Shown: piece after piece, positions 38,929 to 63,726 of the stretch
How the letters are laid out: each line of letters opens with the position of its first letter
How positions within the stretch are numbered: position 1 is the first letter of the stretch
Assembly: GCA_964413645.1 (NCBI GenBank)
Contig: CAYPSA010000005.1
Coordinates: forward strand, 2,820 to 66,819
Direction of reading: 5' to 3'
DNA: 64,000 nt
DNA from: an uncultured Gammaproteobacteria bacterium
GTDB lineage: Bacteria > Patescibacteriota > Microgenomatia > UBA1406 > HO2-37-13b
Program-made: the position numbers and the translations under genes
The notes under the pieces: generated by a model
Database searches by the model: none
Told to the model about the DNA's origin: nothing
What the model saw: only the letters and a program-made list of their open reading frames with translations

Positions 38929-39765
<837 letters not shown>

Positions 39766-48900: not shown

Positions 48901-51900
48901 ACAAGATAAATGGCACGGACGTGATTTCTGCTTCAGGGCTAGGAGTAGGAGTTACCGCTTCCTCACTCACCAGTCTTGGTACACTCGGAAATCTGACGGT
49001 CGCCGGAACATCAGCTCTTAATGGCGGTATTACGTTTGATAACTCAACTGATACAATCTCAGCCTTCACTGCCGGTGGAACCATTGACTTGGCAACTAAT
49101 CTCATAACCAACATTGGAAACGCAGGAACCGACTTCAGTGCCGGTGGAGGACTTACACTTGCTGGTGCATTCACGGCAAACAGCACAACCGCTCTTAACG
49201 GAGCCACTACTCTTGGAGACGCTGCTGCTGATACCGTAACCAGTAATGCGGGAGTATGGTCTTTCACCAATGCAACAACGGTTGATCTTGCCGATAGCTC
49301 ACGAGGAGCACTTAACTTTGAAGGTGGTTTACTTGCTCTTGACACTCTCAATTCACGCATCGGTATTGGAACAACAACTCCAACTCAAAAATTAGATGTT
49401 GCGGGAAACGTAAACATATCATCAGGATCAACATACAAAATCAATGGAACGGATGTCCTTTCAGCCTCGGGACTTGGTGTGGGAGTAACCGCCTCATCTT
49501 TGACCAGCCTTGGTACACTTGGAAATGTAACAGTAACCGGAACATCAGCCTTAAATGGCGGAATCACGTTTGATAGTGCAACCGATACAATCTCAGCTTT
49601 CACAGCTGGTGGTACCATCGACTTGGCAACTAACTTAATTACCAACATTGGCAACTCCGGTACCGACTTTATTGCTGGTGGAGGACTTACACTCGCCGGA
49701 GCATTCACCGCAAACAGCACATCTGCCTTAAATGGAGCCGTTACACTCGGAGATGCTTCATCCGACATGGTAACCAGTAATGCTGGAGTATGGTCTTTCA
49801 CAAATGCAACAACAGTGGATCTTGCAGACAACGCTCGAGGAGCACTGAATTTCGAAGGTGGTCTGTTAGCTCTGGACACTCTCAATTCACGAATTGGTAT
49901 CGGCACAACAACTCCAACACAAAAACTTGATGTTGTAGGAAATGTGAATGTATCTTCTGGCTCAACCTACAAGATCGCTGGAACAGACGTTCTTTCAGGT
50001 AATACTTTAGGTGCAGGCATAACAGCCTCATCACTCACATCCGTCGGCACTCTCACCAACCTTGGAGTAGGCAACTCGGGATCATTCGGTGGAGGCCTGT
50101 TAGTTGGTGGACAAACACTAACCAACTTTACCGGAAATGGTGTAACACTCTCATCTGGAGCTCTTACCGTCAATCTCACCACCTCTGGAACCACCGGATC
50201 CACATCATCCAATTCTGGACTTGAGGTTGGAAGTGGGGGGCTTACACTCCTCAAAGGCTGTACCGATGGAGAACTTCTCAAATACACCGACGCTTCCGGC
50301 TGGGCATGTGCAACTGACACCGATACTAACACCGGAAATATTTCAGGATTCACCGATTTCGGAAGTATTGTCGCACTCACCACCACCGCAGATAACTTAG
50401 GAGTCGGAACATCTTCCCCAACTAACAAGCTCTCGGTAGTCGGTACCGCAGACATCTCAGGAAATCTTGGAGTTGGTACAACGACTCCAGCATACAAGCT
50501 TGATGTTGCAGGTTCAGCCAACCTTTCAACTGGTTCCACCTACAAAATAAACGGTACCGACGTACTCTCAGCCTCAGGTCTTGGTGTTGGAGTAACCGCC
50601 TCATCTTTGACCAGCCTTGGTACACTTGGAAATGTAACAGTCACCGGAACATCAGCCTTAAACGGTGGAATCACCTTCGACAGCTCAACCGACACCATTT
50701 CAGCTTTCACTGCCGGTGGAACCATTGATCTTGCAACCAATCTCATTACTAACATTGGTAATGCTGGAACCGACTTTGTTGCTGGTGGAGGTTTAACTCT
50801 CGCAGGAGCATTCACCGCAAACAGTACCTCTGCCTTAAACGGAGCTACTACTCTTGGAGATGCTGCTGCTGATACCGTAACCAGCAACGCTGGAGTGTGG
50901 GTATTTAGTAATGCAACAACGGTTGATCTTGCGGATAGTTCACGAGGAGCACTGAATTTCGAAGGTGGCTTACTTGTGCTCGATACTCTTAATAGTAGAA
51001 TTGGAATCGGCACTACAACTCCAACTCAAAAACTCGATGTCGTCGGAAATGTGAATGTATCCTCAGGTTCTACCTACAAAATCAATGGAACCGATGTTCT
51101 TTCCGGAAACACACTAGGATCAGGAGTAACCGCATCTTCTCTCACATCAGTCGGTACACTCACCAACCTTGGAGTAGGGAACTCGGGTGCATTTGGTGGA
51201 GGCCTGTTAGTTGGTGGACAAACGCTTACCAACTTCACCGGAAATGGTGTAACACTTTCATCTGGAGCGTTAACGGTGAATCTAACCGCATCAGGAACAA
51301 CCGGATCCACATCATCCAACTCAGGGTTGGAAGTTGGAAGTGGAGGACTTACGCTCCTTAAGGGCTGTTCGGATAATGAATTACTCAAGTATACCGATGC
51401 TTCTGGATGGGCTTGTGCGGTTGATATTGATACGACAGGTGCAAACGTTTCAGGATTCACTGATTTCGGAAGTATTGTCGCACTCACCACCACCGCAGAT
51501 AACCTAGGTGTTGGAACATCTTCTCCAACCAACAAACTCTCAGTCGTCGGTAACGCAGATATCTCTGGAAATCTTGGAATCGGTACAACCACTCCAGCAT
51601 ACAAACTTGATGTGGCAGGAAACACGAATCTCTCATCAGGATCAACATACAAAATCAACGGAACGGATGTTATCTCAGCCTCTGGTCTAGGAGTAGGAGT
51701 AACCGCCTCATCACTCACCAGTCTTGGAACACTCGGCAACGTAACAGTAACGGGTACTTCAGCCTTAAACGGCGGAATCACGTTTGATAGTGCAACCGAT
51801 ATAATCTCAGCTTTCACTGCTGGTGGAACCATTAATATGGCGACGAATATAATTACTGATATCGGTGATGCCGGAACCGACTTCATTGCCGGTGGAGGAC

Positions 51901-54900
51901 TCACGCTTGCCGGAGCATTCACTGCAAATAGCACGGCGGTACTTAACGGAGCAGTCACTCTCGGAGATGTTGCGGCTGATACCGTAACTGCAAATGCAGG
52001 CGTATGGTCATTTGCAAATGCCACAACGGTAAATCTTGCGGATAGCGCTCGTGGAGCATTAAACTTCGAAGGTGGCTTACTTGCGCTCGACACTCTTAAT
52101 AGTAGAATCGGTATTGGCACAACAACCCCAACAACAACGCTTGATGTCGTCGGCACTGGTAAATTTTCAGGCCTTCTCACTGCCAGCTCAGGATTGTCTA
52201 TAAATTCAGAAACAGTTACCGACTTTAGTGGAAGCGGCATTGTTGTTACGGGAAATGCTTTAACAGTGAATCTAACTTCCTCAGGAACCACCGGATCAAC
52301 CTCATCCAACTCAGGACTTGAGGTTGGATCAGCGGGTCTAACACTTCTTAAAGGCTGTGCCGATGGAGAGATTCTTGAATACACGGACGCAGGTGGTTGG
52401 GCATGTGCGGTTGATTCTGATACTGGAAACATTTCTGGATTCACTGATTTCGGAAGCATCGTCGCACTCACCACCACCGCAGACAACCTCGGAGTCGGAA
52501 CATCTTCCCCAACCAACAAGCTCTCAGTCGTCGGTACTGCAGATATTTCTGGAAACTTGGGAGTTGGTACAACCACTCCTGCATACAAACTTGATGTTGC
52601 GGGTAATACTAATCTCTCATCAGGCTCCACCTACAAAATCAATGGAACCGATGTTCTTTCAGCCTCAGGACTTGGTGTTGGAGTCACGGCCTCATCACTC
52701 ACCAGTCTTGGCACACTCGGAAACGTAACAGTTGCCGGAGTTTCTGCCTTAAACGGTGGAATCACGTTTGACAATTCAACCGACACCATTTCTGCCTTCA
52801 CTCTTGGTGGTACCCAAGACGCAGCAACAAACCTAATCGTTAACATTGGCGACAATGGAACAGACTTCATTGCCGGTGGAGGACTTACCCTTGCAGGAGC
52901 ATTCACCGCAAACAGCACAAGCGCATTAAACGGAGGAGTTACATTGGGCGATGCTTCAGACGACACAGTGACCAGCAACGCCGGAATATGGTCATATGCC
53001 AACTCCACAACCATCGACCTCGTTAACAGTGCTCGAAATGCGCTTAACATCGAAGGCGGACTTCTTTCACTCGATACCCTCAACAGCCGAGTTGGTATTG
53101 GTTCAAGCAGCTCACTTGCCGGACTTGATGTACAAACAACCGCATGGCTTCGAGGAGCAGTTGCAGGTACATCAGGACTATACGTAAACGGATCTGGAAA
53201 TGTAGGTATCGGAATCACCATGCCGCAAAACAAACTCGATGTATCTGGTTCTGTGGCATTTGGCTCATTACCAACCAATCAGCTTCCACAAGCAAATTCT
53301 GCTTACTTCTCAGGAAATGTTGGAATTGGAACAACTAATCCACAAGCAAATCTTAATGTAGCTAACAACTCCCTTTCTACCGGAACCGGTCTATTGGTCA
53401 GCTCAACATCAACATCATTCTCATCGGGCAAACTTGCAAGTATCGATTGGAGTCCATCATCAGCAACTACAGCAACGGGCGATGTACTTTCGGTTAATGT
53501 AGGTGTCAATGGAGTAGTCGGTAACATTTTCAATGTTATGGATGGTGGTTCGAGTGTCTTCTCGGTTAGTCAAAGTGTTATAACGGCAGGATTGCCAGTC
53601 AACTTTACAGCACCTGGCGATGTCGGAATCGCCTATGACTTATTATTTAGCAACCAAACAGCTTCAAATATTAAATCATATGGGCCGCTTACCATCGAAT
53701 CAGGCGAAAGTTTCGAATCGAATTATTTGACGCTCAAAACATACAATTCTGGACAAATAGTCTTTGATGCACCAGGAGGAATTCTATTGGCACAAGCACA
53801 GCCATGGACACTAGCTACTAGCGCACAAGCACTTAATATCCAAAATGGATTGCTTAATCTCGACACAACGAATAGTCGAGTTGGAATCGGAACAAGTAAT
53901 CCACTTGCTGGTTTTGATGTTCATAATACCGCATGGCTTCGAGGAGCAGCTTCAGGTGCATCAGGACTGTATGTAAATGGATCGGGAAATGTAGGGATTG
54001 GAACAAGCGCACCTAAGAATAAATTAGATGTTTCCGGATCAGTCGCATTTGGCTCGTTACCAACCAATCCACTTCCACAAGCCAACAGTGCCTATTTCTC
54101 AGGAAATCTCGGTATTGGAACAACAAATCCTGGATATAAGTTAGACGTAGCCGGTACAGTAAACATATCATCAGGCTCCACCTACAAAATCAATGGAACC
54201 GATGTTCTTTCAGCCTCAGGACTTGGTGTTGGAGTCACGGCCTCATCACTCACCAGTCTTGGCACACTCGGAAACGTAACAGTTGCCGGAGTTTCTGCCT
54301 TAAACGGTGGAATCACGTTTGACAATTCAACCGACACCATTTCTGCCTTCACTCTTGGTGGTACCCAAGACGCAGCAACAAACCTAATCGTTAACATTGG
54401 CGACAATGGAACAGACTTCATTGCCGGTGGAGGACTTACCCTTGCAGGAGCATTCACCGCAAACAGCACAAGCGCATTAAACGGAGGAGTTACATTGGGC
54501 GATGCTTCAGACGACACAGTGACCAGCAACGCCGGAATATGGTCATATGCCAACTCCACAACCATCGACCTCGTTAACAGTGCTCGAAATGCGCTTAACA
54601 TCGAAGGCGGACTTCTTTCACTCGATACCCTCAACAGCCGAGTTGGTATTGGTTCAAGCAGCTCACTTGCCGGACTTGATGTACAAACAACCGCATGGCT
54701 TCGAGGAGCAGTTGCAGGTACATCAGGACTATACGTAAACGGATCTGGAAATGTAGGTATCGGAATCACCATGCCGCAAAACAAACTCGATGTATCTGGT
54801 TCTGTGGCATTTGGCTCATTACCAACCAATCCGCTTCCACAATCCAACAGTGCCTATTTCTCAGGAAATGTAGGTATTGGAACAACCAACCCAGGATTTG

Positions 54901-57110
54901 GATTGGAAGTAAATGGAACAGCACGAGTTAATGGAGCGGTAACATTTGGAGATGCATCGAGTGATACGGTTACATCAACAGCAGGTGCATGGACATTCTC
55001 AAATGCATCAACATTCGATCTTGCAAATTCTCAATTAAATGCGCTTAACTTTGAATCAGGCTTGCTCAATATCGACACATCTGGTTCTACCGTTGGTATT
55101 GGAACAACTGTTCCTACTGCAAAATTAAGTGTGCTACAAACCGGATCAGCAAACGCATTCTTAGTACAAGATGTTGCGAGCGACACAACACCATTTGTAA
55201 TCGATGCAAGCGGACGAGTTGGAATTGGAACCACCACTCCAAGTGACAGTATATCATTGGAAGTCGTAGGCGACACGCGCTTGGGTGGTAATATTTCTCG
55301 AAATGCCCATGGTTCTAACAATCTTAATGACCAGGGAAGCATTTCGCCAAACGGTGGGTTTGAAGGTCTAACGGCATCAGGCGCAAACTTGCCTGATGAC
55401 TGGGCTGATGTCGATTCAGGAGCTACCGTAAGTACAACCCAAGTTGCACAAGGAGACCGATCATTGCGCATGTCATCATTAAACGATGAAGTTATGAGTA
55501 CGTGTTATCCGGCGACTGGTGGAAATACCTTGAACTTTAATATGTCTTCCTATTTAACATCAGGTGATACTACGCGATTACGTATGAGAGAATATACAAC
55601 ACTTGCAAACTGTACGGCGAATACAAGTCCTACAACAACCGACACAACTGCATGTACGGGCGTTGGAGCTTCACCAGTATGGGCTACATGTAGCGCTGCT
55701 CAAGTACTTGTTGCTGGAACACGATGGATGCGTACTGGAATATATTTTCATACGAAATCAAGTACGCACGTATATGTAGACTCAGTTAGAGTGACCCAAA
55801 ACGCACTTACAAATGGTCTTGATTTAGCAGAAACATATCCTGCGGCAAAAGCTGATGGAATTAAAGTTGGTGAGATCGTATCGTTTGGAAGAGCTAACAA
55901 GCAAGTCGGCGCAGACGTGAATAATGTCACTCGATCATCAAAAGCATATGATAATTTGGCCTTTGGAATTGTTTCTACTAAGCCAGGAATCGTGCTCGAT
56001 GACCAAGGTGCAAGTGAGAAAGTTCAAGTAGCCCTTAAAGGTCGAGTTCCGGTGCTCGTTTCAACTGAAAATGGACCAATCAAAATCGGCGATCCAATTG
56101 TTGCTTCAAGCAAGCCGGGTGTGGGTATGAAAGCTACTAAAGCTGGAAAGATATTAGGATACGCCATGACCGAGTTTGTAAATACTGATCCATCAGTAAT
56201 TGATCAAGTTATCGTATTCGTTGAAAGCTCATGGTTTGATCCAAGCTTGGCTTTGGGAAGCACGGGCGATGTTAATGGAGTGGCTTCAACTTATGCTAGC
56301 TTAAGCCCAAATAATACTGATGACGTTGCAAAAGACTTGGTTAAAATTAGTAGTGATTTTGAAAAGCTTACCCTTTCGATGAATGCGCTTGATAGTAAGG
56401 TTGAAGGTGTGGAGGGTGAAGTTGGTAAACTCAGCAGTGAAAATACATCGCTTACCGCTCGACTTTCAAGTCTTGAAGATAAATTAAAGCAACTTGAAGA
56501 AGGTGGAGCAGTTCTAGGAATTGGATCGACTAATCCACAGCTTTCAGGCGAATCTATTGCAAGTGCTTCAGCCGCTCTTGATGACGCCGATTCACTTATT
56601 GACGGCACAGAGTCTAAGCTCTCTGAGCTCACCGTGACTGGCTTGGCTAAACTTAACAACTTGAATGTAATTGGCGACGCCACATTTGGAATGATGCAAA
56701 TCGTGGGAATTGATCCAAATGATGGATCGAACATTGACACTATAGCCGGTCCATTACGACTACAAGCAACTGCACTTAATGATTTAGATATTATGAATGG
56801 CAAAGTTTTGGTAACAACCGATGGAAATATTATTACAAAAGGCCAAATTACTGCTAAAAAATTGAACATTAGTACTCAAGATGATGCTGAAGATAACAGT
56901 GTCGGTGTGGCTAAATTGCTTAAAGGAACCAAAAAGGTAATTGTGAAGACAACTGCAATCACTGCAAAGTCACATGTGTTTGTAACGCCAAAGACATTGC
57001 TCGATTATCCATTAGTTGTAACTGTTCTTGAGCCTCAAACCTCATTTACGGTTGAAGTGAAATCGAGTGAAGATAAAGATGTCGAATTCGACTGGTTCAT
57101 TGTGAACTAA
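39930..57110 (+). CDS. Giant (5,726-aa) membrane-anchored, Gly/Thr/Ser-rich mosaic-repeat fibre/adhesin-like surface protein
   Basis: One uninterrupted 17,181-nt ORF with an N-terminal hydrophobic anchor (ILAGLVLLVSSTVASL). About 14.6 kb consists of shuffled repeat modules. The non-repeat C-terminus has a jelly-roll/CBM-like segment, a coiled coil and a conserved terminal domain ending FDWFIVN. Confidence 0.85.
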   Translation: MNHFFQQTASILAGLVLLVSSTVASLPEKFHDFTSKFSYKPPVTSPAKKKTAQSQKSFPAVLAATIDRTKTGVTFTIPAFFKDLVTLDSSLEVNGPSTFNDKVTLTNQDLDLGTGELTASNVLYGLTAGNGILISEGQTPEIKLDLNVVSSISGRTGDVDLEEGSGISIDGLEITNSDKGSAQNIFKTFSVSGQSDIVANSNTSKLTFVAGEGTVLTTDATAKTLTITSNFNNSGWVDEGAIIRLSGISDSVGIGTSSPANKLSVVGNTDISGNLGIGTTTPAYKLDVAGNANLSSGSTYKINGADVLSASGLGVGVTASSLTSLGTLGNVTVTGTSALNGGITFDNATDTISAFTAGGTINLANNLITNVGNAGTDFTASGGLTLAGLLTASSGISLDAETVTDFSGNGIVVTSNSLFVNLTTSSNTGATSSNSGLEVGTAGLTLLKGCSDGELLKYTDAGGWACSTDIDTTSGSASGFTDFGSIVALITSADNLGVGTSSPTNKLSVVGTADISGNLGVGTTTPGYKLDVAGNANLASGFTYKVNGNDVLSGTTLGVGVTSSSLTQLGALGNLTVTGAIVGNGGLTLAAGQTLNVNSDAITDLTGNGIVLSGGTLTVGLTSSGTTGSSSSNSGLEVGSAGLTLLKGCSDNELLKYTDASGWACAIDIDTTGANLAGFTDFGSIVALTTTADNLGVGTSSPTNKLSVVGTADISGNLGIGTTAPAYKLDVAGNVNLSTGSTLKINGTDVLSASGLGVGVTASSLTSLGTLGNVTVTGVSALNGGITFDSTTDTISAFTAGGTINMATNIITDIGNSGTDFTGAGGLNLAGLLTALSGVSINSETVTDFSGSGISVSGNALTVNLTSSGTTGSTSSNSGLEVGSGGLTLLKGCTDGELLKYTDAGGWACATDTDTNTNTSGFTDFGSIVALTTTADNLGVGTSSPTNKLSVVGNTDISGNLGVGTTTPAYKLDVAGSTNLSSGSTYKINGTDVLSASGLGVGVTASSLTSVGPLGNLTVTGAIVGNGGLTLATGQTFTMNGDAFTDLTGSGIIISGNALTIGLTTSGTTGSTSSNSGLEVGSAGLTLLKGCTDGELLKYTDAGGWACSADIDTDTNSAGFTDFGSIVALTTTADSVGIGTSSPANKLSVVGTADISGNLGIGTTTPAYKLDVAGSANLSTGSTYKINGTDVLSGSTLGSGITASSLTSVGTLTNLGVGNSGAFGGGILVGGETLTDFTGNGVTLSSGALTVNLTSSGTTGSTSSNSGLEVGSAGLTLLKGCTDGELLKYTDAGGWACATDSNSGNVSGFTDFGSIVALTTTADNLGVGTSSPTNKLSVVGTADISGNLGIGTTTPAYKLDVAGNTNLSSGSTYKINGTDVLSASGLGVGVTASSLTSLGTLGNLTVTGAIVGNGGLTLAAGQTLNFNSDAITDLTGNGIVLSGGTLTVGLTSSGTTGSTSSNSGLEVGSGGLTLLKGCIDGELLKYTDAGGWACATDTDTNTGNISGFTDFGSIVALTTTADNLGVGTSSPTNKLSVVGTADISGNLGIGTTTPAFKLDVAGSANLSSGSTYKINGTDVLSGNTLGSGITASSLTSVGTLTNLGVGNSGSFGGGLLVGGQTLTNFTGNGVTLSSGALTVNLTTSGTTGSTSSNSGLEVGSGGLTLLKGCTDGELLKYTDASGWACAADTDTDTNTSGFTDFGSIVALTTTADNLGVGTSSPTNKLSVVGTADISGNLGVGTTTPAYKLDVVGSANLSAGSTYKINGTDVLSASGLGVGVTASSLTSLGTLGNVTVTGTSALNGGITFDSSTDTISAFTAGGTIDLATNLITNIGNAGTDFVAGGGLTLAGAFTANSTSALNGATTLGDAAADTVTSNAGVWSFTNATTVDLADSSRQALNFESGLFNLDTLNGRVGIGTTTPTQKLDVVGNVNVSSGSTYKIAGTDVLSGNTLGAGITTSSLTSVGTLTNLGVGNSGSFGGGILVGGETLTDFTGNGVTLSSGALTVNLTTSGTTGSTSSNSGLEVGSGGLTLLKGCTDGELLKYTDASGWACATDTDTNTGNISGFTDFGSIVALTTTTDNLGVGTSSPTNKLSVVGTADISGNLGVGTTTPAYKLDVAGNTNLSSGSTYKINGTDVLSGNTLGSGITASSLTSVGTLTNLGVGNSGAFGGGLLVGGQTLTNFTGNGVTLSSGALTVNLTTSGTTGSTSSNSGLEVGSGGLTLLKGCSDGEILKYTDAGGWACAADVDNDTNSSGFTDFGSIVALTTTADNLGVGTSSPTNKLSVVGTADISGNLGVGTTTPAYKLEIIGTGRLSGLLTASAGVSINSETVTDFSGSGIAVTGNALTVNLATSGTTGSTSSSSGLEVGAGGLTLLKGCNDGEILKYTDAGGWACVADVDNDTNNSGFTDYGSIVALTTTADSVGIGTSSPANKLSVVGSADVSGSFGIGTTAPAYNLEVIGTGRVSGLLTASSGVSINGETVTDLSGSGIVLTGNALTVNLTNSGTTGSTSSNSGLEVGSGGLTLLKGCSDGEILKYTDAGGWACAADVDNDTNSSGFTDFGSIVAMTTSADNLGVGTSSPTNKLSVVGTADISGNLGVGTTIPAYKLDVVGSANLSSGSTYKINGTDVISASGLGVGVTASSLTSLGTLGNVTVAGVSALNGGITFDNSTDTISAFTAGGTIDLATNLITNIGNAGTDFVAGGGLTLAGAFTANSTSALNGAVTLGDASSDTVTSNAGVWSFTNATTVDLADNARGALNFEGGLLALDTLNSRIGIGTTTPTQKLDVVGNVNVSSGSTYKINGTDVLSGNTLGAGITASSLTSVGTLTNLGVGNSGSFGGGLLVGGQTLTNFTGNGVTLSSGALTVNLTTSGTTGSTSSNSGLEVGSGGLTLLKGCTDGELLKYTDAGGWACAADTDTDTNTSGFTDFGSIVALTTTADNLGVGTSSPTNKLSVVGNADISGNLGVGTTTPAYKLDVAGNTNLSSGSTYKINGTDVISASGLGVGVTASSLTSLGTLGNLTVAGTSALNGGITFDNSTDTISAFTAGGTIDLATNLITNIGNAGTDFSAGGGLTLAGAFTANSTTALNGATTLGDAAADTVTSNAGVWSFTNATTVDLADSSRGALNFEGGLLALDTLNSRIGIGTTTPTQKLDVAGNVNISSGSTYKINGTDVLSASGLGVGVTASSLTSLGTLGNVTVTGTSALNGGITFDSATDTISAFTAGGTIDLATNLITNIGNSGTDFIAGGGLTLAGAFTANSTSALNGAVTLGDASSDMVTSNAGVWSFTNATTVDLADNARGALNFEGGLLALDTLNSRIGIGTTTPTQKLDVVGNVNVSSGSTYKIAGTDVLSGNTLGAGITASSLTSVGTLTNLGVGNSGSFGGGLLVGGQTLTNFTGNGVTLSSGALTVNLTTSGTTGSTSSNSGLEVGSGGLTLLKGCTDGELLKYTDASGWACATDTDTNTGNISGFTDFGSIVALTTTADNLGVGTSSPTNKLSVVGTADISGNLGVGTTTPAYKLDVAGSANLSTGSTYKINGTDVLSASGLGVGVTASSLTSLGTLGNVTVTGTSALNGGITFDSSTDTISAFTAGGTIDLATNLITNIGNAGTDFVAGGGLTLAGAFTANSTSALNGATTLGDAAADTVTSNAGVWVFSNATTVDLADSSRGALNFEGGLLVLDTLNSRIGIGTTTPTQKLDVVGNVNVSSGSTYKINGTDVLSGNTLGSGVTASSLTSVGTLTNLGVGNSGAFGGGLLVGGQTLTNFTGNGVTLSSGALTVNLTASGTTGSTSSNSGLEVGSGGLTLLKGCSDNELLKYTDASGWACAVDIDTTGANVSGFTDFGSIVALTTTADNLGVGTSSPTNKLSVVGNADISGNLGIGTTTPAYKLDVAGNTNLSSGSTYKINGTDVISASGLGVGVTASSLTSLGTLGNVTVTGTSALNGGITFDSATDIISAFTAGGTINMATNIITDIGDAGTDFIAGGGLTLAGAFTANSTAVLNGAVTLGDVAADTVTANAGVWSFANATTVNLADSARGALNFEGGLLALDTLNSRIGIGTTTPTTTLDVVGTGKFSGLLTASSGLSINSETVTDFSGSGIVVTGNALTVNLTSSGTTGSTSSNSGLEVGSAGLTLLKGCADGEILEYTDAGGWACAVDSDTGNISGFTDFGSIVALTTTADNLGVGTSSPTNKLSVVGTADISGNLGVGTTTPAYKLDVAGNTNLSSGSTYKINGTDVLSASGLGVGVTASSLTSLGTLGNVTVAGVSALNGGITFDNSTDTISAFTLGGTQDAATNLIVNIGDNGTDFIAGGGLTLAGAFTANSTSALNGGVTLGDASDDTVTSNAGIWSYANSTTIDLVNSARNALNIEGGLLSLDTLNSRVGIGSSSSLAGLDVQTTAWLRGAVAGTSGLYVNGSGNVGIGITMPQNKLDVSGSVAFGSLPTNQLPQANSAYFSGNVGIGTTNPQANLNVANNSLSTGTGLLVSSTSTSFSSGKLASIDWSPSSATTATGDVLSVNVGVNGVVGNIFNVMDGGSSVFSVSQSVITAGLPVNFTAPGDVGIAYDLLFSNQTASNIKSYGPLTIESGESFESNYLTLKTYNSGQIVFDAPGGILLAQAQPWTLATSAQALNIQNGLLNLDTTNSRVGIGTSNPLAGFDVHNTAWLRGAASGASGLYVNGSGNVGIGTSAPKNKLDVSGSVAFGSLPTNPLPQANSAYFSGNLGIGTTNPGYKLDVAGTVNISSGSTYKINGTDVLSASGLGVGVTASSLTSLGTLGNVTVAGVSALNGGITFDNSTDTISAFTLGGTQDAATNLIVNIGDNGTDFIAGGGLTLAGAFTANSTSALNGGVTLGDASDDTVTSNAGIWSYANSTTIDLVNSARNALNIEGGLLSLDTLNSRVGIGSSSSLAGLDVQTTAWLRGAVAGTSGLYVNGSGNVGIGITMPQNKLDVSGSVAFGSLPTNPLPQSNSAYFSGNVGIGTTNPGFGLEVNGTARVNGAVTFGDASSDTVTSTAGAWTFSNASTFDLANSQLNALNFESGLLNIDTSGSTVGIGTTVPTAKLSVLQTGSANAFLVQDVASDTTPFVIDASGRVGIGTTTPSDSISLEVVGDTRLGGNISRNAHGSNNLNDQGSISPNGGFEGLTASGANLPDDWADVDSGATVSTTQVAQGDRSLRMSSLNDEVMSTCYPATGGNTLNFNMSSYLTSGDTTRLRMREYTTLANCTANTSPTTTDTTACTGVGASPVWATCSAAQVLVAGTRWMRTGIYFHTKSSTHVYVDSVRVTQNALTNGLDLAETYPAAKADGIKVGEIVSFGRANKQVGADVNNVTRSSKAYDNLAFGIVSTKPGIVLDDQGASEKVQVALKGRVPVLVSTENGPIKIGDPIVASSKPGVGMKATKAGKILGYAMTEFVNTDPSVIDQVIVFVESSWFDPSLALGSTGDVNGVASTYASLSPNNTDDVAKDLVKISSDFEKLTLSMNALDSKVEGVEGEVGKLSSENTSLTARLSSLEDKLKQLEEGGAVLGIGSTNPQLSGESIASASAALDDADSLIDGTESKLSELTVTGLAKLNNLNVIGDATFGMMQIVGIDPNDGSNIDTIAGPLRLQATALNDLDIMNGKVLVTTDGNIITKGQITAKKLNISTQDDAEDNSVGVAKLLKGTKKVIVKTTAITAKSHVFVTPKTLLDYPLVVTVLEPQTSFTVEVKSSEDKDVEFDWFIVN
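52617..53280 (+). repeat. 664-bp perfect direct repeat, copy A (partner 54168-54831; offset 1551 bp = 517 codons)
   Basis: A line-by-line comparison of 52617-53280 with 54168-54831 shows no mismatch. The flanks diverge at 52616/54167 and at 53281/54832. Identical 63-aa track ORFs at 52996 and 54547 confirm the match. Confidence 0.9.
54168..54831 (+). repeat. 664-bp perfect direct repeat, copy B
   Basis: See copy A. Confidence 0.9.
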
Positions 57111-57160
57111 GCCTCTTGAATTTAGCTCCTCATTTCAGTACCCTTATTTAAATTGTATAT

Positions 57161-60100
57161 ATGGGAAAATTTATTACACATTTTAAAGCGTATTTGCGAA
57201 ACTTCAAGAGTAAATCTCGGCGTCCGATAATAGTAATAATCTCATTTTTGATTATCGCAACCGGTTTTTTATTATATACAAACAACGCCAAAGCAGTTGA
57301 TTGGTGGAAAGGTGGGGGTGGCGCATGGGGAGCTCGCAAACAACTTACGGTTACGAATAACTCATCCGCGACGCTTTCTGCAAATACAACGGTAGTCATA
57401 ACAATTGACACGAAGAGTCTGGTTAATTCAGGTAAATTACGCCGTGACTGTTCAGATTTACGTATTTTATATCAGCCATCTTCATCAACCACTACCGAAC
57501 TTACTCGGCATCTGACTTTTGCTCCTACCGAAACAGGGCAAGGAACATGTATTACGAGTTCGGCAACGAAGGTATATTTCAATTTGCAATCATCACTCTC
57601 ATCGTCAGGTTCAACAACCGACTATTATTTGTATTACAAAAACCCAAGCGCCTCCACTCCAACGTCTACCGATAATGCATTTGATATTTCATCAATCAAC
57701 GCAACGCTCGTATGTCCATTTGATGGAACAACCACGTGCGCTGCAGGTGAAACACCAAGTACAGAAACCGGTGCCATTCGATATAGTGGAGGAAAGAGCG
57801 CACTTATTTTTGATCATGTAAATGACTATGTTGAATATTCTTTAGCATCAGGAGTAGGTACTGCGCTTACAAGCAAAGTATTTACTATTGAAACATGGAT
57901 ATATGTTAATAATATTACTGAGCCGTTTGGAATTCTTGGAGACACAGTTGGGAGCAATGACGCGTTTAAATTGCAATCATTGTCGGGTACTGATATTTCA
58001 TTTCGAGGGGAAGGATCGAGCACGGGTATCGTTTTAGATTGTGCAAATGCCTTTACATCAACCGGATGGTACCATGTTGCGGTTGTGTCAACCGGACCTT
58101 CAGCATATCTATATAAAAATGGAACTCAATGTAGTTCCGATTCAATTGTCGGGGAAACATATTCTCAGGGGACCGTTCATAGAATAAGCTGGGGAGGATA
58201 TTTTGGCGTACGTTATATGGCGGGTATTATCGATGAATATCGATTCAGTAACACCATTCGATACACGTCAAATTTCACTCCAAGCACAGCTCCCTTTGTA
58301 CGTGATGCGAATACGATGGTATTATTTCATTTTGATGAAAATGGAACCGACCCTCGACAATCGGGCAAAGCAATCGACGATTCGGGTAATAATGTTCATG
58401 GAACAATTAGTGGAGCCCAGTATGTGGACGGTCTTGTTGGTGTAGACGCTTCGTCGGTAGATATTGGAAAAGTATCGGGTCAATCATTCGGAAGCCACGA
58501 GGGAGTCTTTGTCGAAGAAGGTACGACCAACAAAATTACAAACCCTTCATTTGAAAATGCTACGTATGATACAAATTGGACAACTGGGGCAAATCTTACC
58601 GCAACCTCAAACGCAACTGCTCCTTATTATAAATTTGGCGTAAAATCGGCAAAGTTAGTTGCCTCAGCAAGTGCTATTTCGGGAACGAGTAATATGTTTA
58701 CAACAAACATAAACGTAGGAAGCAGTGCTACTCATGGATTTTCTGCATTTGTGTACGATGCAACTTCTGGAAATGTTGGCGGAACTGTGTCATCCAGTAT
58801 TGCAAAAATTGTGTTTCAAGGAGTCGCCCAAACGACAACATATACCGATGTGGGTGGTGGTTGGTGGCGATTAAGCTATGCAGCTAGTGCGGCAGGAGCA
58901 CAAGAATTTGGAATTGAGCCGCAAGTGTCGAAAACTATCTATGTTGATGCTGCTCAACTTGAAGCTAAGGCGACGCAATTGGCCGGTTATTCTACATCGT
59001 ATGCGGATGGCTCATTGGGATCAGGATATGCGTGGACTGGAACAGCAAACAATAGTACCAGTACTCGTACTGCAGGCGATCTGCGTTATGCCACGTCGGG
59101 AAATATTTCAGTCAGTGCGGGTACATTTAGTGCATGGGTTTGGTATCCATCATATTATTCAAGCTGTAGCGGCGCTCATCAGGGAATTTTATATACAAAT
59201 GGGGCAAATCCACTTTTTATGGGGCAAAATTGCGGAACAGCCTGGTTTTCGGTTAATGGAACCAATGGTGGAGCGGCATCGGGTACTATGCCTACATATG
59301 GGGCAAATAAATGGCACCATTACGTTGGTACATGGAATGGGTCGGCACTAACTTTTTATATTGATGGGACTGCCCAGACTCCAGGTTCGTATACTGCAAC
59401 ACCAACAGCAACTTCTATTATACTGAATACAGATATAGGAGGGAATACCGGAATCGACACAGTCACTTTATCTGATTTGCGAATCTACGATACCGCACTT
59501 ACTTCTACCCAAGTAACCGACTTGTATCAGTCCGGATTGGTTGGACATAGTCAGGGACTGCAGGTTGATGCCTTCGGCGATACTTCGGGAGAAGACCCAG
59601 TAAGCATTTATCACATGGATGAAGCTCAGGGAACAAGCGTAAACGATAGCACTGTGCAGGCAAATCATTTTACCCTCGGCACCGGTTCATCAGCTCCGAG
59701 TTGGGAGACAACCAATAACGTATCAGGTGCAGCCAATCCCCGAGGGACCAATTTAAAATTCGATGGTTCAAATGATTATATCTATCGGAATGATGACTCC
59801 GATTTTAACCCCGGAACCGGCTCATTTTCTGTTTCTGGATATTTTAGGCACCCAAGCACCATTTCAGGAACCGATACCCTCATAACGCGGTACAGTAGTG
59901 CTGGGTATAAGGTATATATGAATTCCTCAGGGTACCTGTGTTTTGGTATCGACGATGATTCTACCTGGGGACCCGATGACTCGGCATGTTCAACATCGAG
60001 TCAGGGTTCGTTTGCTGATTCTAAATGGCATACATTTACAGCAGTAAAAACGAGTACGACGTCTATTGCGCTCTACATAGACGGGATCCTTGTAGGTAGC

Positions 60101-63100
60101 GACTCATCGCTTGCAGCTACCGCCACACTCAACGCAGGCTCGAGTAGCATTATGTATATGGGAATTGACGCAGACTTTGCCTCAAATCCATGGGCCGGGA
60201 ATTTAGATGAGGTGTATTTTTATCCGTATGCGCGATCAGCCGCACAAATCAAAGCGAATACGGGTGGTGCAACGCTTGGGGCTTCTACCGATCCGCTTGA
60301 TAAGGGGCTGGTTGGATATTGGAAGATGGACGAAAGTTCTGGCACAACAACTAGTGATTCGAGTGGAAATTTATATACAGGAACGCTTGGAGTTGGCGCA
60401 TCCGCACCAACATGGACGAATGGTAAATTTGGTGGAGGACTATCATTTGATGGCACTTCTGATTTGGTAAATTTATCTACGATTACTAAACCTACTACAA
60501 GTTTTCCTATAACATTATCTTTTTGGGTTAATCCAACAACCACTTCGCCGGTTGGTATTTTTGACTCTGCTCCTGGTCAAGGGAATGTATTAAGAAATTA
60601 TTCCGCAGGCAATATAGAATGGTGGAATGGCCAACCTCAGGTATCTTTGGGCCTATCTTCATCAGTATGGCAACATGTCACTGTTGTTTACGATCATGAC
60701 GGGACAAATAGAATTCTGCGGTATTACAAGAATGGCACTCTTACAAGTTCGAGTAGTTTTGCGGGTACAAATGAATATAATTGGTCTAATTTTACTTTAG
60801 GAAATATTAACGGAGGTGATGCTGGGTGGTTTTCTGGAAGTTTAGATGAATTCAGAGTATACAACCGTGCGCTTTCGCCTGCCGAAGTACAACAGTTGTA
60901 TAATTACGCCCCGGGGCCCGTGGGGCATTGGAAAATGGATGAAGGGAATGGATTAAGTGCTTTTGACAGTTCGGGAAATGGAAATACCGGCACGCTTACT
61001 AACGGACCTGTATGGACTAATGCAAAATTAGCTGGAGGCGTACAGTTTGATGGAAGCAATGATTCAGTGCTAGTGACAGATGCTAATAGTCTTGATACTC
61101 CTGCGGGCATTACAACATCAGCGTGGGTTAATTTTAGCACTTTAGCATCAGGAGGTGATTACGGATTTATGTCCAAATGGACCAGCGGTTCGGGTTGGTT
61201 TATCGAACCAAATTATTCAGGAACTAGTTGGAGAATATATTTTGTTTTTAGTGATGCAACGGCAAATAGCTGGGTTTTTGACCCGGGAATTTCAACCACC
61301 AATCGCTGGTACCATGTTTCAATAACGTACGACAAAACAAGTATGAAATTTTATACCGATGGTGTCCTTGTTGGGTCCACTGCCTTGACTAAAGATTTGA
61401 TTACTAATTCGCAACCACTCTATCTTGGCTATAGCAATGGAAGCGGTGGTGGAGCACATTATTTGACCGGGAAAATGGATGATGTTCGTATTTATAACTA
61501 TGCACGATCATCGGCTCAAGTAATCCAAGACATGAACGCAGGCCATCCATTGGGTGGTTCTCCGGTGGGGAGTCAAGTTGCCCATTGGAAACTCGACGAA
61601 GGCTATGGTACAACAGCTAATGATTCATCAATTAATGGAAACTCACTCACGCTTTCGTCTGCTACTGCTGCATGGACAAATGCGGGAAAGTTTGGTAAAG
61701 CATGGAATGGAGATGGCGCTCTATACATGAGTCGAGCAGATGATGCGGACTTTGATTTTACCGCAGTTGAGGATTTTGCAATAAGTGGATGGGTAAAGTC
61801 TGATTCAGCCAGTAACCCGGGAGCAACAGAATACGTCGTAAACAAAGCAAATGCCACTACCGCTGGATATGCTGTATATTTCAATACCTCTGGAAACCTT
61901 TGTTTTGGAATTGACGACGATACTACCTGGGGCCCTGACATTGCAAGTTGTAGCACCACCGATCTGTATGACGCCACCTGGCATCATTTTAGTGCGATGC
62001 GCGATTATTCGGGGACGCTGAAAACATTTATATATGTTGATGGAATAAGTCGTGATAACGATACCGATAGTACAAGCGCAACTTTCGCAAATTCACTCTC
62101 ACTTTACGTGGGTGACCGTGATGGCACCAACAATGGTGATGAATTTACTGGGGATATTGACGAAGTTAAAATTTATCGAGGCGCATTAACACCTGCAGAA
62201 ATTAAGATTGACTATAATCGTGGGCAGAGTTTAGTTTTAGGTTCTGTTTCAAACAATTCTACATATGCTCCAAATGCGGCAAACCAAGAATATTGTGTGC
62301 CGGGGGATAGCACAAGCTGTGCAGCGCCGGTCGGAGAGTGGAGGCTAGATGAGCGAACAGGGTCGACGGTTAATGATACATCAGGGAATGGATATTCTGG
62401 TACCCTGACCTTGGGTCCATCTTGGACTAAAGGTAAAATTGGAGCAGCTTTAAATTTTGATGGCTCTGATGACTATGTTGATTTCGGAACGGCAGCGGGT
62501 CTTGATTTAACATCATCAATGACATTCAGTGCTTGGATTAATTCGAGTTCATTTGCATCGCAGCAAAGAGTATTCCAACGCAGAGGTGCGGGTGGATATG
62601 GATTCACTATACTTAATAGCACTACTATACGATTTACCCAGTTTGGAGTAGTGGACAAAGACATAACAGTTTCAGCCCTTTCAGCGAATACGTGGTACCA
62701 TGTTACTTGGGTATTTAATGATACCGCCGATACGGTTACTGTTTATTTGAATGGGCAAAGTGTCGGCAGTACTGCTCTGGCAAGTGCTATTGTGAGTGTG
62801 CCGGCAAGTTCGAATATCATGGGTGGAACTGGTAATATGTTCAGTGGCAAGATAGACCATGCGACTTTATACAACTACGCCCGAACTGCTTCTCAAGTTG
62901 CCTGGGACTATAATCGCGGAGCGCCGATTGCCCACTATCGTCTCGATGAATGTGCAGGAACCGTTGCCAACGACGCATCAGGAAACGGCTACACGGGTAC
63001 AATTACGATTGGAGCAAGTGGTACAAATACGAGTGCGGGAAATTGTACGAGCGGTACAAGTTCCGAAGCATGGTATAACGGAGTCGCTGGTAAATTCAAT

Positions 63101-63649
63101 AGTAGTTTGAAATTTGATGGAACGGATGACTACGTAAGTGTTACCGACAATAGTAATCTCGAAAATGCAGTCATGTCGCTTTCAGCCTGGATTTATACCA
63201 GCGCAGGATTCCCAAGTCAAACTGGACCCCTTGGCAAAAGAATTACATCGAGTGAATATATACAGTACTCTTTCAGTGTATCCAGTAATACTTTTTACTG
63301 GCTTCAATCTGAAGCTGGCTCAAGCTGGAACACTCTGGTATCTACCCCTTCCAATACCATATCGGCTGGATGGCATCATTACGTGGGTACTAATAATGGA
63401 ACTACAGCCCGGCTATATATTGATGGAAAAGAAGTTGGAACTGCCGATTCATCACCAGCTACAACACTTGCCGCAAGTACCGACCCCTTTATAATCGGAG
63501 AGCAGCGAGTTGGTAGCAGCGATAGTTACTTTACTGGTCAAATTGATGATGTTCGAATATATAACTACGCTCTAACCACGACGCAAATAAAGAACATCAT
63601 GAACGGCGACTTTGCCGTTCGATACGCACCAGCAACAGGGCAGCCGTAA
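57161..63649 (+). CDS. 2,162-aa membrane-anchored DUF2341 + multi-LamG (concanavalin A-like lectin) repeat protein
   Basis: N-terminal TM helix (IIVIISFLIIATGFLLY). DUF2341-like start (WWKGGGGAWGARKQLTVTNNS...DCSDLRILY). A jelly-roll/CBM-like segment follows (NPSFENATYDTNW...IYVDAAQLEAKA). Eight LamG-type units begin W[KR][ML]DE..G....D.SGNG..GTL and end [IL]D[ED]VR[IV]YN.A[LR]....[IV] (e.g. LDEFRVYNRALSPAEVQQLYN; IDDVRIYNYALTTTQIKNIMN). Confidence 0.8.
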   Translation: MGKFITHFKAYLRNFKSKSRRPIIVIISFLIIATGFLLYTNNAKAVDWWKGGGGAWGARKQLTVTNNSSATLSANTTVVITIDTKSLVNSGKLRRDCSDLRILYQPSSSTTTELTRHLTFAPTETGQGTCITSSATKVYFNLQSSLSSSGSTTDYYLYYKNPSASTPTSTDNAFDISSINATLVCPFDGTTTCAAGETPSTETGAIRYSGGKSALIFDHVNDYVEYSLASGVGTALTSKVFTIETWIYVNNITEPFGILGDTVGSNDAFKLQSLSGTDISFRGEGSSTGIVLDCANAFTSTGWYHVAVVSTGPSAYLYKNGTQCSSDSIVGETYSQGTVHRISWGGYFGVRYMAGIIDEYRFSNTIRYTSNFTPSTAPFVRDANTMVLFHFDENGTDPRQSGKAIDDSGNNVHGTISGAQYVDGLVGVDASSVDIGKVSGQSFGSHEGVFVEEGTTNKITNPSFENATYDTNWTTGANLTATSNATAPYYKFGVKSAKLVASASAISGTSNMFTTNINVGSSATHGFSAFVYDATSGNVGGTVSSSIAKIVFQGVAQTTTYTDVGGGWWRLSYAASAAGAQEFGIEPQVSKTIYVDAAQLEAKATQLAGYSTSYADGSLGSGYAWTGTANNSTSTRTAGDLRYATSGNISVSAGTFSAWVWYPSYYSSCSGAHQGILYTNGANPLFMGQNCGTAWFSVNGTNGGAASGTMPTYGANKWHHYVGTWNGSALTFYIDGTAQTPGSYTATPTATSIILNTDIGGNTGIDTVTLSDLRIYDTALTSTQVTDLYQSGLVGHSQGLQVDAFGDTSGEDPVSIYHMDEAQGTSVNDSTVQANHFTLGTGSSAPSWETTNNVSGAANPRGTNLKFDGSNDYIYRNDDSDFNPGTGSFSVSGYFRHPSTISGTDTLITRYSSAGYKVYMNSSGYLCFGIDDDSTWGPDDSACSTSSQGSFADSKWHTFTAVKTSTTSIALYIDGILVGSDSSLAATATLNAGSSSIMYMGIDADFASNPWAGNLDEVYFYPYARSAAQIKANTGGATLGASTDPLDKGLVGYWKMDESSGTTTSDSSGNLYTGTLGVGASAPTWTNGKFGGGLSFDGTSDLVNLSTITKPTTSFPITLSFWVNPTTTSPVGIFDSAPGQGNVLRNYSAGNIEWWNGQPQVSLGLSSSVWQHVTVVYDHDGTNRILRYYKNGTLTSSSSFAGTNEYNWSNFTLGNINGGDAGWFSGSLDEFRVYNRALSPAEVQQLYNYAPGPVGHWKMDEGNGLSAFDSSGNGNTGTLTNGPVWTNAKLAGGVQFDGSNDSVLVTDANSLDTPAGITTSAWVNFSTLASGGDYGFMSKWTSGSGWFIEPNYSGTSWRIYFVFSDATANSWVFDPGISTTNRWYHVSITYDKTSMKFYTDGVLVGSTALTKDLITNSQPLYLGYSNGSGGGAHYLTGKMDDVRIYNYARSSAQVIQDMNAGHPLGGSPVGSQVAHWKLDEGYGTTANDSSINGNSLTLSSATAAWTNAGKFGKAWNGDGALYMSRADDADFDFTAVEDFAISGWVKSDSASNPGATEYVVNKANATTAGYAVYFNTSGNLCFGIDDDTTWGPDIASCSTTDLYDATWHHFSAMRDYSGTLKTFIYVDGISRDNDTDSTSATFANSLSLYVGDRDGTNNGDEFTGDIDEVKIYRGALTPAEIKIDYNRGQSLVLGSVSNNSTYAPNAANQEYCVPGDSTSCAAPVGEWRLDERTGSTVNDTSGNGYSGTLTLGPSWTKGKIGAALNFDGSDDYVDFGTAAGLDLTSSMTFSAWINSSSFASQQRVFQRRGAGGYGFTILNSTTIRFTQFGVVDKDITVSALSANTWYHVTWVFNDTADTVTVYLNGQSVGSTALASAIVSVPASSNIMGGTGNMFSGKIDHATLYNYARTASQVAWDYNRGAPIAHYRLDECAGTVANDASGNGYTGTITIGASGTNTSAGNCTSGTSSEAWYNGVAGKFNSSLKFDGTDDYVSVTDNSNLENAVMSLSAWIYTSAGFPSQTGPLGKRITSSEYIQYSFSVSSNTFYWLQSEAGSSWNTLVSTPSNTISAGWHHYVGTNNGTTARLYIDGKEVGTADSSPATTLAASTDPFIIGEQRVGSSDSYFTGQIDDVRIYNYALTTTQIKNIMNGDFAVRYAPATGQP

Positions 63650-63654
63650 TAAGG

Positions 63655-63726
63655 TGTCCCGAGAGGGAATTGAACCCCCATTTAACCCTTAGGACGGGCT
63701 TGTTCTATCCATTGAACTACCGGGAC
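63655..63726 (-). tRNA. tRNA-Arg (anticodon CCU)
   Basis: The reverse complement is GTCCCGGTAGTTCAATGGATAGAACAAGCCCGTCCTAAGGGTTAAATGGGGGTTCAATTCCCTCTCGGGACA. It folds as a canonical cloverleaf: 7-bp acceptor stem, D stem GTTC/GAAC, anticodon stem AGCCC/GGGTT with loop GTCCTAA, and T arm GGGGG-TTCAATT-CCCTC. The 3' CCA is not encoded. Confidence 0.9.

Follow-up and report, generated by a model that had tools for sequence, protein, structure and literature searches.

A 64,000-nucleotide stretch of contig CAYPSA010000005.1 (hereafter the window) carries a gene for a 2,162-amino-acid (aa) protein with eight LamG units, directly downstream of a giant gene for a fibre-like protein. With a probability of roughly 60%, we read this LamG protein as exported and non-catalytic, serving recognition together with the adjacent fibre and joining a conserved scaffold to six exchangeable LamG slots. 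It has a defined architecture, a conserved linkage to the giant gene, a fixed layout of eight slots and a mosaic of blocks with breakpoints at unit junctions. The determinants of host attachment in the candidate phyla radiation (CPR, Patescibacteria) are largely unknown. Most lineages are uncultured, which rarely leaves room for genetics; the LamG locus, defined by its sequence, is a tangible candidate for what determines specificity. The open reading frame (ORF) that a first-pass annotation had reported is real, starts with ATG on the plus strand and is divided as follows.

57161..63649, plus strand: the multi-LamG protein, 2,162 aa (whole ORF including the stop codon).
57161..57295, plus strand: N-terminal signal sequence, aa 1-45, the sole hydrophobic segment, with a conserved AxA; cleavage is predicted.
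57296..57760, plus strand: N-domain, probably a divergent DUF2341 beta-sandwich, aa 46-200 (sub-threshold in Pfam, linked by profile, pLDDT about 80-88).
57773..58285, plus strand: LamG unit 1, hypervariable, aa 205-375 (Laminin_G_3, E 2.3e-15).
58526..58990, plus strand: CBM-like jelly roll, aa ~456-610, from AlphaFold2 (AF2) and Foldseek, without a Pfam family.
59078..59542, plus strand: LamG unit 2, two allelic types among close relatives, aa 640-794 (Laminin_G_3, E 1.2e-13).
59597..60274, plus strand: LamG unit 3, the most conserved, aa 813-1038 (mean cross-species score 209 bits).
60308..60913, plus strand: LamG unit 4, hypervariable, aa 1050-1251.
60917..61549, plus strand: LamG unit 5, variable, aa 1253-1463.
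61574..62230, plus strand: LamG unit 6, a block in common with relative P2, aa 1472-1690.
62327..62923, plus strand: LamG unit 7, a block in common with relative P3, aa 1723-1921.
62924..63616, plus strand: LamG unit 8, two allelic types, aa 1922-2152.

Mosaic variation among four close relatives

We compared the window allele (P1) with those of three close relatives, P2 (locus L003), P3 (L080) and P4 (L082). All four share the order giant gene, LamG gene, tRNA-Arg, LytR_C, alcohol dehydrogenase and aminotransferase. Among P2, P3 and P4, the products of flanking housekeeping genes show 93-97% identity (proportion of synonymous differences, pS, 0.32-0.61), and five housekeeping proteins of P1 are 91-96% identical to those on a contig from the sample of P3 (pS 0.24-0.59). 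The LamG proteins of P1-P4 reach an overall identity of only 55-67%, and their units range from 28 to 98%, with different genome pairs having different blocks in common.

Thus P1 and P2 are alike in units 2, 6 and 8 (85, 95 and 87%) and divergent in units 1, 4 and 7 (28, 40 and 40%), P1 and P3 are alike in unit 7 (95%) and divergent in units 2 and 8 (37 and 46%), and P2 and P4 are alike in unit 8 (95%), the rest being much lower. P3 and P4 are alike from the N-domain to unit 4 (95-98%) and divergent in units 5, 7 and 8 (38, 42 and 50%). When P1 is followed unit by unit, its unit 1 is 28-35% identical to those of the close relatives, and its unit 2 is 85% identical to that of P2 and 37% to those of P3 and P4. 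Unit 6 shares 95% of its residues with P2 (pS 0.36, nucleotide identity 87-97% in the block). Unit 7 shares 95% with P3, at a nucleotide identity of 82-94% in the block, and 40-42% with P2 and P4; unit 8 is 84-87% identical to P2 and P4 and 46% to P3.

In divergent blocks pS is saturated at 0.65-0.83, above the genomic background, and in the clearest common blocks (P1-P2 unit 6, P1-P3 unit 7, P2-P4 unit 8 and P3-P4 N-domain to unit 4) it is 0.17-0.38; units 2 and 8 of P1-P2 have higher values, 0.68 and 0.58. Nucleotide identity in a sliding window of 30 codons jumps from ~59% to 90-97% at unit junctions, and the P3/P4 breakpoint is the junction of units 4 and 5. Fisher tests on blocks defined post hoc gave p values of 1e-53 to 1e-238. 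Some unit types recur far outside this group. For unit 4, the type found in P3 and P4 has a 78% identical counterpart in the distant lineage P0008, and for unit 8, the type of P3 matches that of the distant P0007, again at 78%. Among JGI metagenomes no further close allele was found, the best match having 47% identity.

The simplest reading of these sequences is that whole LamG units would be replaced by homologous recombination, anchored in conserved junctions and drawing on old allelic types. The anchors would probably be the junctions of the form ...IDEVRIYN..A..Q...N / W.xDE..G...D.SGNG..GT..., and the cassette types would be old and common to distant CPR lineages. The only DNA repeat within the gene is a single 80-nt pair of 71% identity, formed by the junction motifs that close units 5 and 8.

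Two other sources of variation were considered. Hypervariation of a diversity-generating retroelement target was ruled out: no template/variable repeat of that kind was found within 57100-64000 and no reverse transcriptase among the scanned ORFs, and the differences are whole-unit blocks rather than adenine-specific changes. Silent donor cassettes of the pilS kind were rejected because no silent LamG, N-domain or jelly-roll fragment lies elsewhere in the 64-kb window.

A fixed layout of eight units

The domain order is signal sequence, N-domain, LamG1, a conserved linker, the jelly roll and LamG2-8. The first-pass annotation had put the jelly roll in front of all eight LamG units, behind a membrane anchor and a DUF2341-like domain. 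The LamG architecture, the jelly roll and the DUF2341-like N-domain all hold, but the order was wrong, as LamG1 precedes the jelly roll and seven units follow it; in addition, the DUF2341 match is below threshold and the anchor is doubtful. An identical LamG protein is present in two independent metagenome assemblies, and SRR8893623 and SRR8893624 contain exactly this gene.

The count of eight units was borne out twice. A Pfam scan of the whole protein, a check proposed with the annotation, returned eight Laminin_G_3 stretches (E 3.2e-162, 534.2 bits against a cut-off of 27.6), and a hidden Markov model (HMM) built from the clear LamG units, used to delimit them all, placed LamG1-4 at aa 173-374, 596-794, 813-1038 and 1050-1251, and LamG5-8 at aa 1253-1463, 1472-1690, 1723-1922 and 1922-2152. 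Units 3 and 6 are paralogues with a CFGIDDDxTWGPD motif and a Cys pair. The start motif W[KR][LM]DE, said to open each unit, is exact in four of the eight (aa 1054, 1257, 1476 and 1727) and degenerate, as judged by eye, in the others; the end motif, likewise ascribed to each, is matched by regular expression in six of eight units, and degenerate forms can be seen in the other two. A 'unit start' motif, FHFDENG...DDSGNNVHGTI, also precedes the jelly roll (aa 389-416, 58325-58408), so that it is not confined to LamG units. This stretch is among the most conserved of the family and was picked by the genome scan as a search pattern.

Dozens of orthologues repeat one layout, in which a single LamG unit is separated from the jelly roll by an insert of variable length (0 to ~1,400 aa) and seven further LamG units follow at conserved distances. 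The best cross-species match of a unit is the unit at the same position in 134 of 144 cases. Unit number, which had been put forward for comparison among relatives, is thus fixed at eight; the variable features are the make-up of the individual units and the insert between LamG1 and the jelly roll. A second large class of proteins (2,400-3,500 aa; P0081-P0120, loci L028-L058) also has the N-domain, LamG1 and jelly roll, often with long inserts between them, and ends in fn3, Pur_ac_phosph_N or DSCAM-type repeats, not in the array of seven LamG units. The metagenome-assembled genome (MAG) ELA588 alone holds at least five loci of this class.

The N-domain and the jelly roll

When the N-terminus was scanned alone, DUF2341 (PF10102) scored 14.4 bits against a cut-off of 23.4 (E 0.053; aa 97-175 on profile positions 2-66), and the whole-protein Pfam scan returned no DUF2341 match. 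We built a profile HMM of aa 46-200 from 18 orthologues. It matches P0078 (aa 71-190), P0079 (aa 55-183) and P0112 (aa 36-152), in which PF10102 itself matches at aa 116-201 (E 3e-25), 100-182 (8e-23) and 81-141 (9e-8). Because the two profiles coincide in these proteins, the N-domain appears to be a divergent DUF2341: the proposed domain misses the Pfam threshold, and its homology is supported by this transitive link. DUF2341 would then be more widespread in CPR than Pfam thresholds show.

The jelly-roll-like segment, placed at aa ~440-640 (58478-59080), was confirmed by a confident all-beta model whose closest folds in the PDB are CBM22, CBM16 and CBM4. Modelled alone by AF2, it reached a pLDDT of 74 and a pTM of 0.77. 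The top Foldseek matches were CBM22 (4xup, 4xuo), CBM16 (2zey), CBM27 and CBM4 (E 1.6e-4 to 8e-3), at TM scores of 0.45-0.58 and 13-17% identity, a resemblance of fold only. Pfam gave no match to aa 441-660 at E <= 1, CBM_4_9 included, and PDB sequences gave none at E <= 10. The domain occurs in 864 cluster representatives among 1.84 billion (E <= 1e-3), and so constitutes a domain family without a Pfam model, defined here. It is also found at aa ~180-365 of abundant proteins of ~800-830 aa (P0178-P0229), where a single LamG follows, and in proteins of ~1,500 aa followed by a conserved protein of ~950 aa (loci L063-L078). The jelly roll was also compared with the C-terminal NGGFE-type domain of the giant protein; BLASTP detected no homology, and a relationship was rejected.

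A model of the N-terminal 769 aa had a pLDDT of 62, with only moderate values for LamG1 and LamG2. Its Foldseek matches in the PDB (neurexin LNS, laminin LG, PAPP-A, pentraxin and botulinum neurotoxin Hc-N; E 1e-9 to 1e-5) were dominated by LamG and uninformative about the N-domain. Weaker, overlapping Pfam matches were to Toxin_R_bind_N, Laminin_G_2, Pentaxin, TS_C, Sialidase and GH16. An enzymatic role was ruled out, as the sialidase, trans-sialidase (TS_C) and GH16 matches are weak, short and partial (aa ~70-85 or ~40) and lie within LamG units; an ExDxxE motif is absent from unit 2, as read from its sequence.

Linkage with the giant fibre gene

The partner gene and the elements that frame the pair are these.

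39930..57110, plus strand: giant Gly/Thr/Ser-rich repeat fibre protein, 5,726 aa, partner gene of the LamG gene.
55950..56216, plus strand: segment of the giant protein (aa ~5341-5429) resembling a 1,104-aa paralogue that contains Peptidase_G2 IMC.
57111..57160, plus strand: intergenic spacer of 50 nt, kept in the two close relatives P2 (L003) and P3 (L080).
63653..63726, minus strand: tRNA-Arg(CCT), found by ARAGORN and Rfam, convergent with the LamG gene and 3 nt beyond its stop codon.

The giant ORF lies upstream of the LamG gene, the gap is exactly the 50 nt first reported, and the pair spans 23,720 nt, matching the earlier figure of 23.7 kb. The LamG gene of the closest relative, P0002 (67% identity), is preceded by a counterpart of the giant gene, 89% identical over 824 aa, again at a distance of 50 nt, and the tRNA is present there as well.

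Scans of GTDB genomes and JGI metagenomes yielded 152 further loci. An ORF was classed as fibre-like if two rounds of BLASTP, started from the non-LamG parts of the giant sequence, led to it. Among loci of the same architecture, 10 of the 16 that could be assessed have such an ORF as the next gene on the same strand (nine upstream, one downstream), as do 21 of 50 other multi-LamG loci. Of the resulting 31 pairs, 13 are separated by 5 nt or less (-4 to 5), 4-nt overlaps included. The linked loci span several Patescibacteria lineages, and in Roizmanbacteria the gene order is reversed. This recurring adjacency and the short gaps back the functional coupling with the giant gene that had been proposed; they are good comparative evidence that the LamG and fibre genes form a functional pair, probably co-transcribed in many lineages. 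We infer the same co-transcription for the source organism.

The fibre character of the giant gene is also supported. Its product has no Pfam match, consists of ~200-aa repeats with GIGTTTPxxKLDVxG motifs, and matches PHROG tail-fibre families (E 1.9e-13 and 3.6e-5). Its segment at aa ~5341-5429 is 33% identical over 91 aa (BLASTP, E 1e-8) to the 1,104-aa protein encoded at 13165..16479 on the minus strand, in which PF11962 (Peptidase_G2 IMC) matches aa 511-590, and the C-terminal part of the giant protein has three collinear segments in common with that protein. These PHROG matches and the Peptidase_G2-IMC-like segment are in keeping with the original fibre reading. A homologue search with the C-terminus of the giant protein gave 20 matches only. 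Within that C-terminus, the NGGFE-type jelly roll (aa ~5360-5510, ~56010-56460) is the segment most diverged between P1 and P2 (71% identity, dN/dS 0.15), the rest being 91-94% identical. The fibre itself may thus bear a second variable recognition element.

The 50-nt spacer (57111-57160, compared with L080 6663-6789 in P3) is nearly invariant in P2 and P3 although the flanking synonymous sites are heavily diverged in the alignment. Since it is conserved in these two relatives, it probably bears some signal. A scan of 56600-57400 for consensus sites agreed with the earlier statement that the gap lacks a promoter or terminator: no sigma-70-like site on the plus strand and no terminator-like hairpin was found in it. 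An RNA element in the spacer was rejected, as it has no stable fold (z = 0.49), no Rfam match and no second copy in the window. Right behind the stop codon of the giant gene, P3 has an extra 74-nt insertion containing a perfect GC-rich palindrome, CCTGCCTGCCGGCAGGCAGG.

Predicted export and proposed function

The first 45 residues comprise a basic n-region, a hydrophobic core at aa ~22-39 and A-K-A at aa 43-45, and form the only hydrophobic segment of the protein. The family consensus at this site is AxA, in which A45 does not vary among 18 orthologues. The membrane anchor first assigned to this stretch is doubtful, since a conserved AxA after the hydrophobic stretch suits a cleavable signal peptide better; the latter is, by sequence features, the more likely. 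Export by Tat may also be possible because the n-region contains an RR pair, within SRRP. The protein has 16 cysteines. No [LIV]PX[TSA]G motif occurs anywhere in it and no hydrophobic segment at its C-terminus, by which a sortase-anchored (LPXTG) adhesin was ruled out. A sortase gene lies ~5 kb downstream in relatives.

We propose that the gene product would be a Sec-exported, non-catalytic surface or extracellular protein of ~230 kDa. Its conserved scaffold would consist of the divergent DUF2341 N-domain, the CBM-like jelly roll and LamG units 3 and 6, and units 1, 2, 4, 5, 7 and 8 would be the variable slots. Made together with the giant phage-tail-fibre-like protein, it might form one cell-surface apparatus for attachment or recognition, in which the fibre would supply reach and the LamG array specificity for glycans or proteins on the surface of the partner (host) cell. 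That specificity would be diversified through replacement of whole units, not through their number. The selective agent would be partner cells or phages.

A bolder and quite tentative extension is that many Microgenomates-type CPR may carry such a two-gene apparatus, with eight slots filled by ancient cassettes of several types per slot, exchanged laterally between strains and even between remote CPR lineages, and serving as a combinatorial host-recognition code for episymbiont attachment. The scaffold can be found by homology, the syntenic locus can be amplified or phased, and the recognition units vary as discrete cassette types. If these types track host identity in data from co-occurrence or co-culture, host range would become predictable from metagenomes, and recombinant single LamG units could serve as probes for the host ligand.

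Alternative explanations

Several points weigh against the proposed recognition apparatus. The mosaic is seen in four close alleles only, all from metagenome assemblies, the Fisher blocks were picked after the data had been seen, and the contig carrying leucyl-tRNA synthetase (LeuRS) was assigned to the P3 genome on the basis of shared sample and synteny. Six of the 16 assessable loci of the same architecture have no fibre neighbour, so that the linkage is frequent, not universal. The conserved spacer could hold an internal promoter other than sigma-70, and hence allow independent transcription. The inter-domain geometry of the AF2 model is unreliable (pTM 0.35). No retention device is visible, neither a C-terminal anchor nor LPXTG, and the protein could just be released. 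Secretion, surface location, ligand binding and interaction with the fibre are all deduced indirectly.

Of the rival explanations, the one that survives best, though still improbable, keeps the same structure and lets enemies drive its variation: the LamG array would be a receptor for phages or predators, a decoy or a shield, and cassette replacement would be escape. Mosaic, deeply diverged blocks in near-identical genomes are equally expected for escape of a phage receptor, and CPR phages have been reported to encode LamG/concanavalin-type proteins (PMC11310336). However, conserved pairing with a long fibre fits an active reaching and binding device better than a passive target, and no defence genes are adjacent.

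Two further possibilities are each somewhat less probable. In the first, the protein would be a secreted polysaccharide binder for nutrient capture or for a biofilm or matrix, acting outside any fibre apparatus. The CBM22/16/4-like jelly roll, the ConA-like folds and the lack of a visible cell anchor would suit such a binder, as would the top Foldseek match, the putative carbohydrate-binding protein 4dqa of Bacteroides; yet the LamG protein contains no catalytic domain, and no glycoside hydrolase, transporter or PUL-like (polysaccharide utilization locus) gene was found among the genes covered (ORFs of the window scanned with Pfam, and genes called in five related loci). Strain-level replacement of cassettes would be unexpected of modules that bind bulk polymer, and the linkage with the fibre gene is conserved.

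The second, of equal standing, takes the protein for a structural component of the envelope, of the S-layer type, or for a platform on which the fibre is assembled or anchored, with LamG units as spacers rather than binding sites. It draws on the fixed number and order of units, their position-specific orthology and the conserved scaffold domains, as well as on the partly architectural role of tandem LamG arrays in eukaryotes (neurexin, laminin). Spacers, however, would not be expected to keep multiple ancient allelic types exchanged among strains, and the scale of variation points to exposed, selected surfaces.

Finally, chimeric assembly of co-existing strains is a very improbable source of the mosaic. 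In its favour, every one of the four alleles derives from a metagenome assembly, assembly of giant repetitive loci is difficult, and the giant gene is truncated at contig ends in relatives. Yet the alleles stem from different studies and samples, their common blocks link alleles across samples, and three of them were obtained from at least two assemblies (P1 identical in two samples, P2 in an NCBI MAG and a Logan assembly, P3 on 11 contigs). The single 80-nt repeat pair, at 71%, is too weak to mislead an assembler.

Comparison with known systems

Surface proteins of CPR and DPANN with LamG/concanavalin-A-like domains have been proposed to mediate host attachment (PMC11310336), and giant FhaB/DUF2341 proteins have been described in Patescibacterium (PMC11809585). 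That CPR possess LamG/concanavalin-type surface proteins presumed to act in attachment is therefore already known. Our protein shares with them the phylum-level group, the fold class, large size and DUF2341, and in both cases adhesion is deduced from sequence only. A keyword search of the literature found no description of the architecture signal peptide, DUF2341-like domain, LamG, jelly roll and seven LamG or of the fixed eight slots, nor of the pairing with a tail-fibre-like giant gene or of unit-wise cassette exchange.

The best structural matches are neurexin-1 alpha, with six LNS domains, and laminin alpha LG1-5 (3qcw, 3poy, 5xau and 2jd4; E 1e-9 to 1e-7). Both these and the LamG protein are strings of ConA-like beta-sandwiches, the eukaryotic ones serving extracellular recognition. 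At 8-10% identity, and in a bacterial protein without EGF spacers, the likeness is one of fold and layout, not of family.

Phage tail fibres are mosaic receptor-binding proteins that evolve by module exchange. Umbrella toxin particles of Streptomyces are reported to use diversified lectin domains (bioRxiv 10.1101/2025.04.24.650519). With both, the LamG protein shares a conserved scaffold with swapped binding modules, sharp recombination blocks and very old types. It differs in that its gene is chromosomal, syntenic with core genes and absent from IMG/VR, and in having eight ordered slots in one polypeptide.

In archaea, DUF2341 proteins of the Epd type IV pilus have been proposed as PilY1-like tip adhesins (PMC4858521), and a DUF2341 gene of the epd locus was hit in a Methanococcus transformation screen (PMC10133366). 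These, too, are large exported DUF2341 proteins tied to a filamentous surface appendage. The LamG gene, in contrast, adjoins a tail-fibre-like giant gene rather than pilins, its product lacks a class III signal peptide and its DUF2341 match is sub-threshold. The sole type IV pilus gene of the window, for a prepilin peptidase, lies at 32206-33054, ~24 kb upstream of the LamG gene. A pilus-associated tip adhesin was ruled out, the neighbours being the giant fibre gene, the F1Fo ATP synthase operon and the tRNA.

TafC of the haloarchaeal Tat-fimbriae carries LamG at the outward end of the filament, where it is proposed to be adhesive, and a TafA-like donor-strand N-domain at residues 1-146 (PMC11821415). 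The resemblance would lie in a LamG domain linked to a filament. Against the TafC model (NF052521) our protein scores 171.7 bits, with a cut-off of 410, and the best stretch listed covers profile positions 192-360, the LamG part only. Membership was ruled out, as the score is below the cut-off and the TafA-like N-domain lies outside the matched stretch.

Genomic setting

The tRNA-Arg gene was correctly placed immediately 3' of the pair by the first-pass annotation; what needed correction is its orientation, on the opposite strand. The same minus-strand arrangement occurs in L003 and L082. In P3, ARAGORN places the tRNA-Arg on the plus strand, opposite to the window, L003 and L082, and a 207-aa ORF with a weak resolvase-type HTH_7 match lies between it and the LamG gene (L080 13200-13896).

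The LamG locus is native to the chromosome and represents neither an island nor a prophage. The GC content at third codon positions (GC3) of the LamG and giant genes is 0.335-0.341, against 0.32-0.39 in housekeeping genes; the raised overall GC of the two genes arises at codon position 2, because of amino-acid composition. The syntenic position between core genes is kept in the four relatives, and no integrase lies adjacent among the genes of this locus and related loci. The possibility of an island-like locus beside the tRNA thus did not hold, and a genomic island or horizontal transfer was ruled out on the grounds of housekeeping-like GC3, synteny and the missing integrase. A scan of IMG/VR returned generic single LamG domains only, at 23-34% identity, the family being absent from viral contigs; together with core-gene synteny and native GC3, this rules out a prophage origin or a phage receptor-binding module, although the fibre gene itself has the remote tail-fibre similarity described above.

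The source organism is a Patescibacteria (CPR, Microgenomates-like) bacterium. The closest named relatives of its LeuRS are Microgenomates, Patescibacteria and Roizmanbacteria (52-55% identity), and all LamG homologues of the same architecture come from Patescibacteria-type records. In GTDB, many of the records with this Patescibacteria-type LamG gene (TPA_asm binchicken MAGs; loci L009-L011, L013-L015, L020, L023 and others) bear the title 'uncultured Gammaproteobacteria' or 'Pseudomonadales', which seems to be a placeholder or a mistaken classification.

The giant gene is preceded by the F1Fo ATP synthase operon, which is encoded on the opposite strand, and genes for NDK, the prepilin peptidase, an M16 peptidase and LeuRS are found farther upstream. 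A 272-aa ORF (38929-39747, minus strand) heads the ATP synthase operon, divergent from the giant gene. It has no ATP-synt_A match, its only matches being sub-threshold ones to phage cement and minor-capsid models.

The 1,104-aa protein belongs to a smaller second fibre gene (13165..16479, minus strand), whose C-terminal module resembles that of the giant protein, including the end ...F(D/N)W(F/W)I(V/I)N. Around this gene (11122-16912, minus strand), a 148-aa ORF with Phage_int_SAM_1 only (16466..16912) stands before it and a 680-aa TPR protein after it. A 168-aa SAM-like-only ORF stands directly upstream of the LamG orthologue at the Roizmanbacteria locus L005/L006, so that an integrase-SAM-like small protein and a fibre gene form a recurring pair. 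At 17708-20972 of the window, PaaX-like and metallo-beta-lactamase-fold genes, with two ORFs between them, adjoin the small fibre gene, and the corresponding cluster of PaaX, ComEA-like, ComEC-like and Lactamase_B genes lies a few kb from the LamG-giant pair of Roizmanbacteria (L005 1069-4677). The fibre loci of the window and of Roizmanbacteria thus seem to occupy equivalent neighbourhoods.

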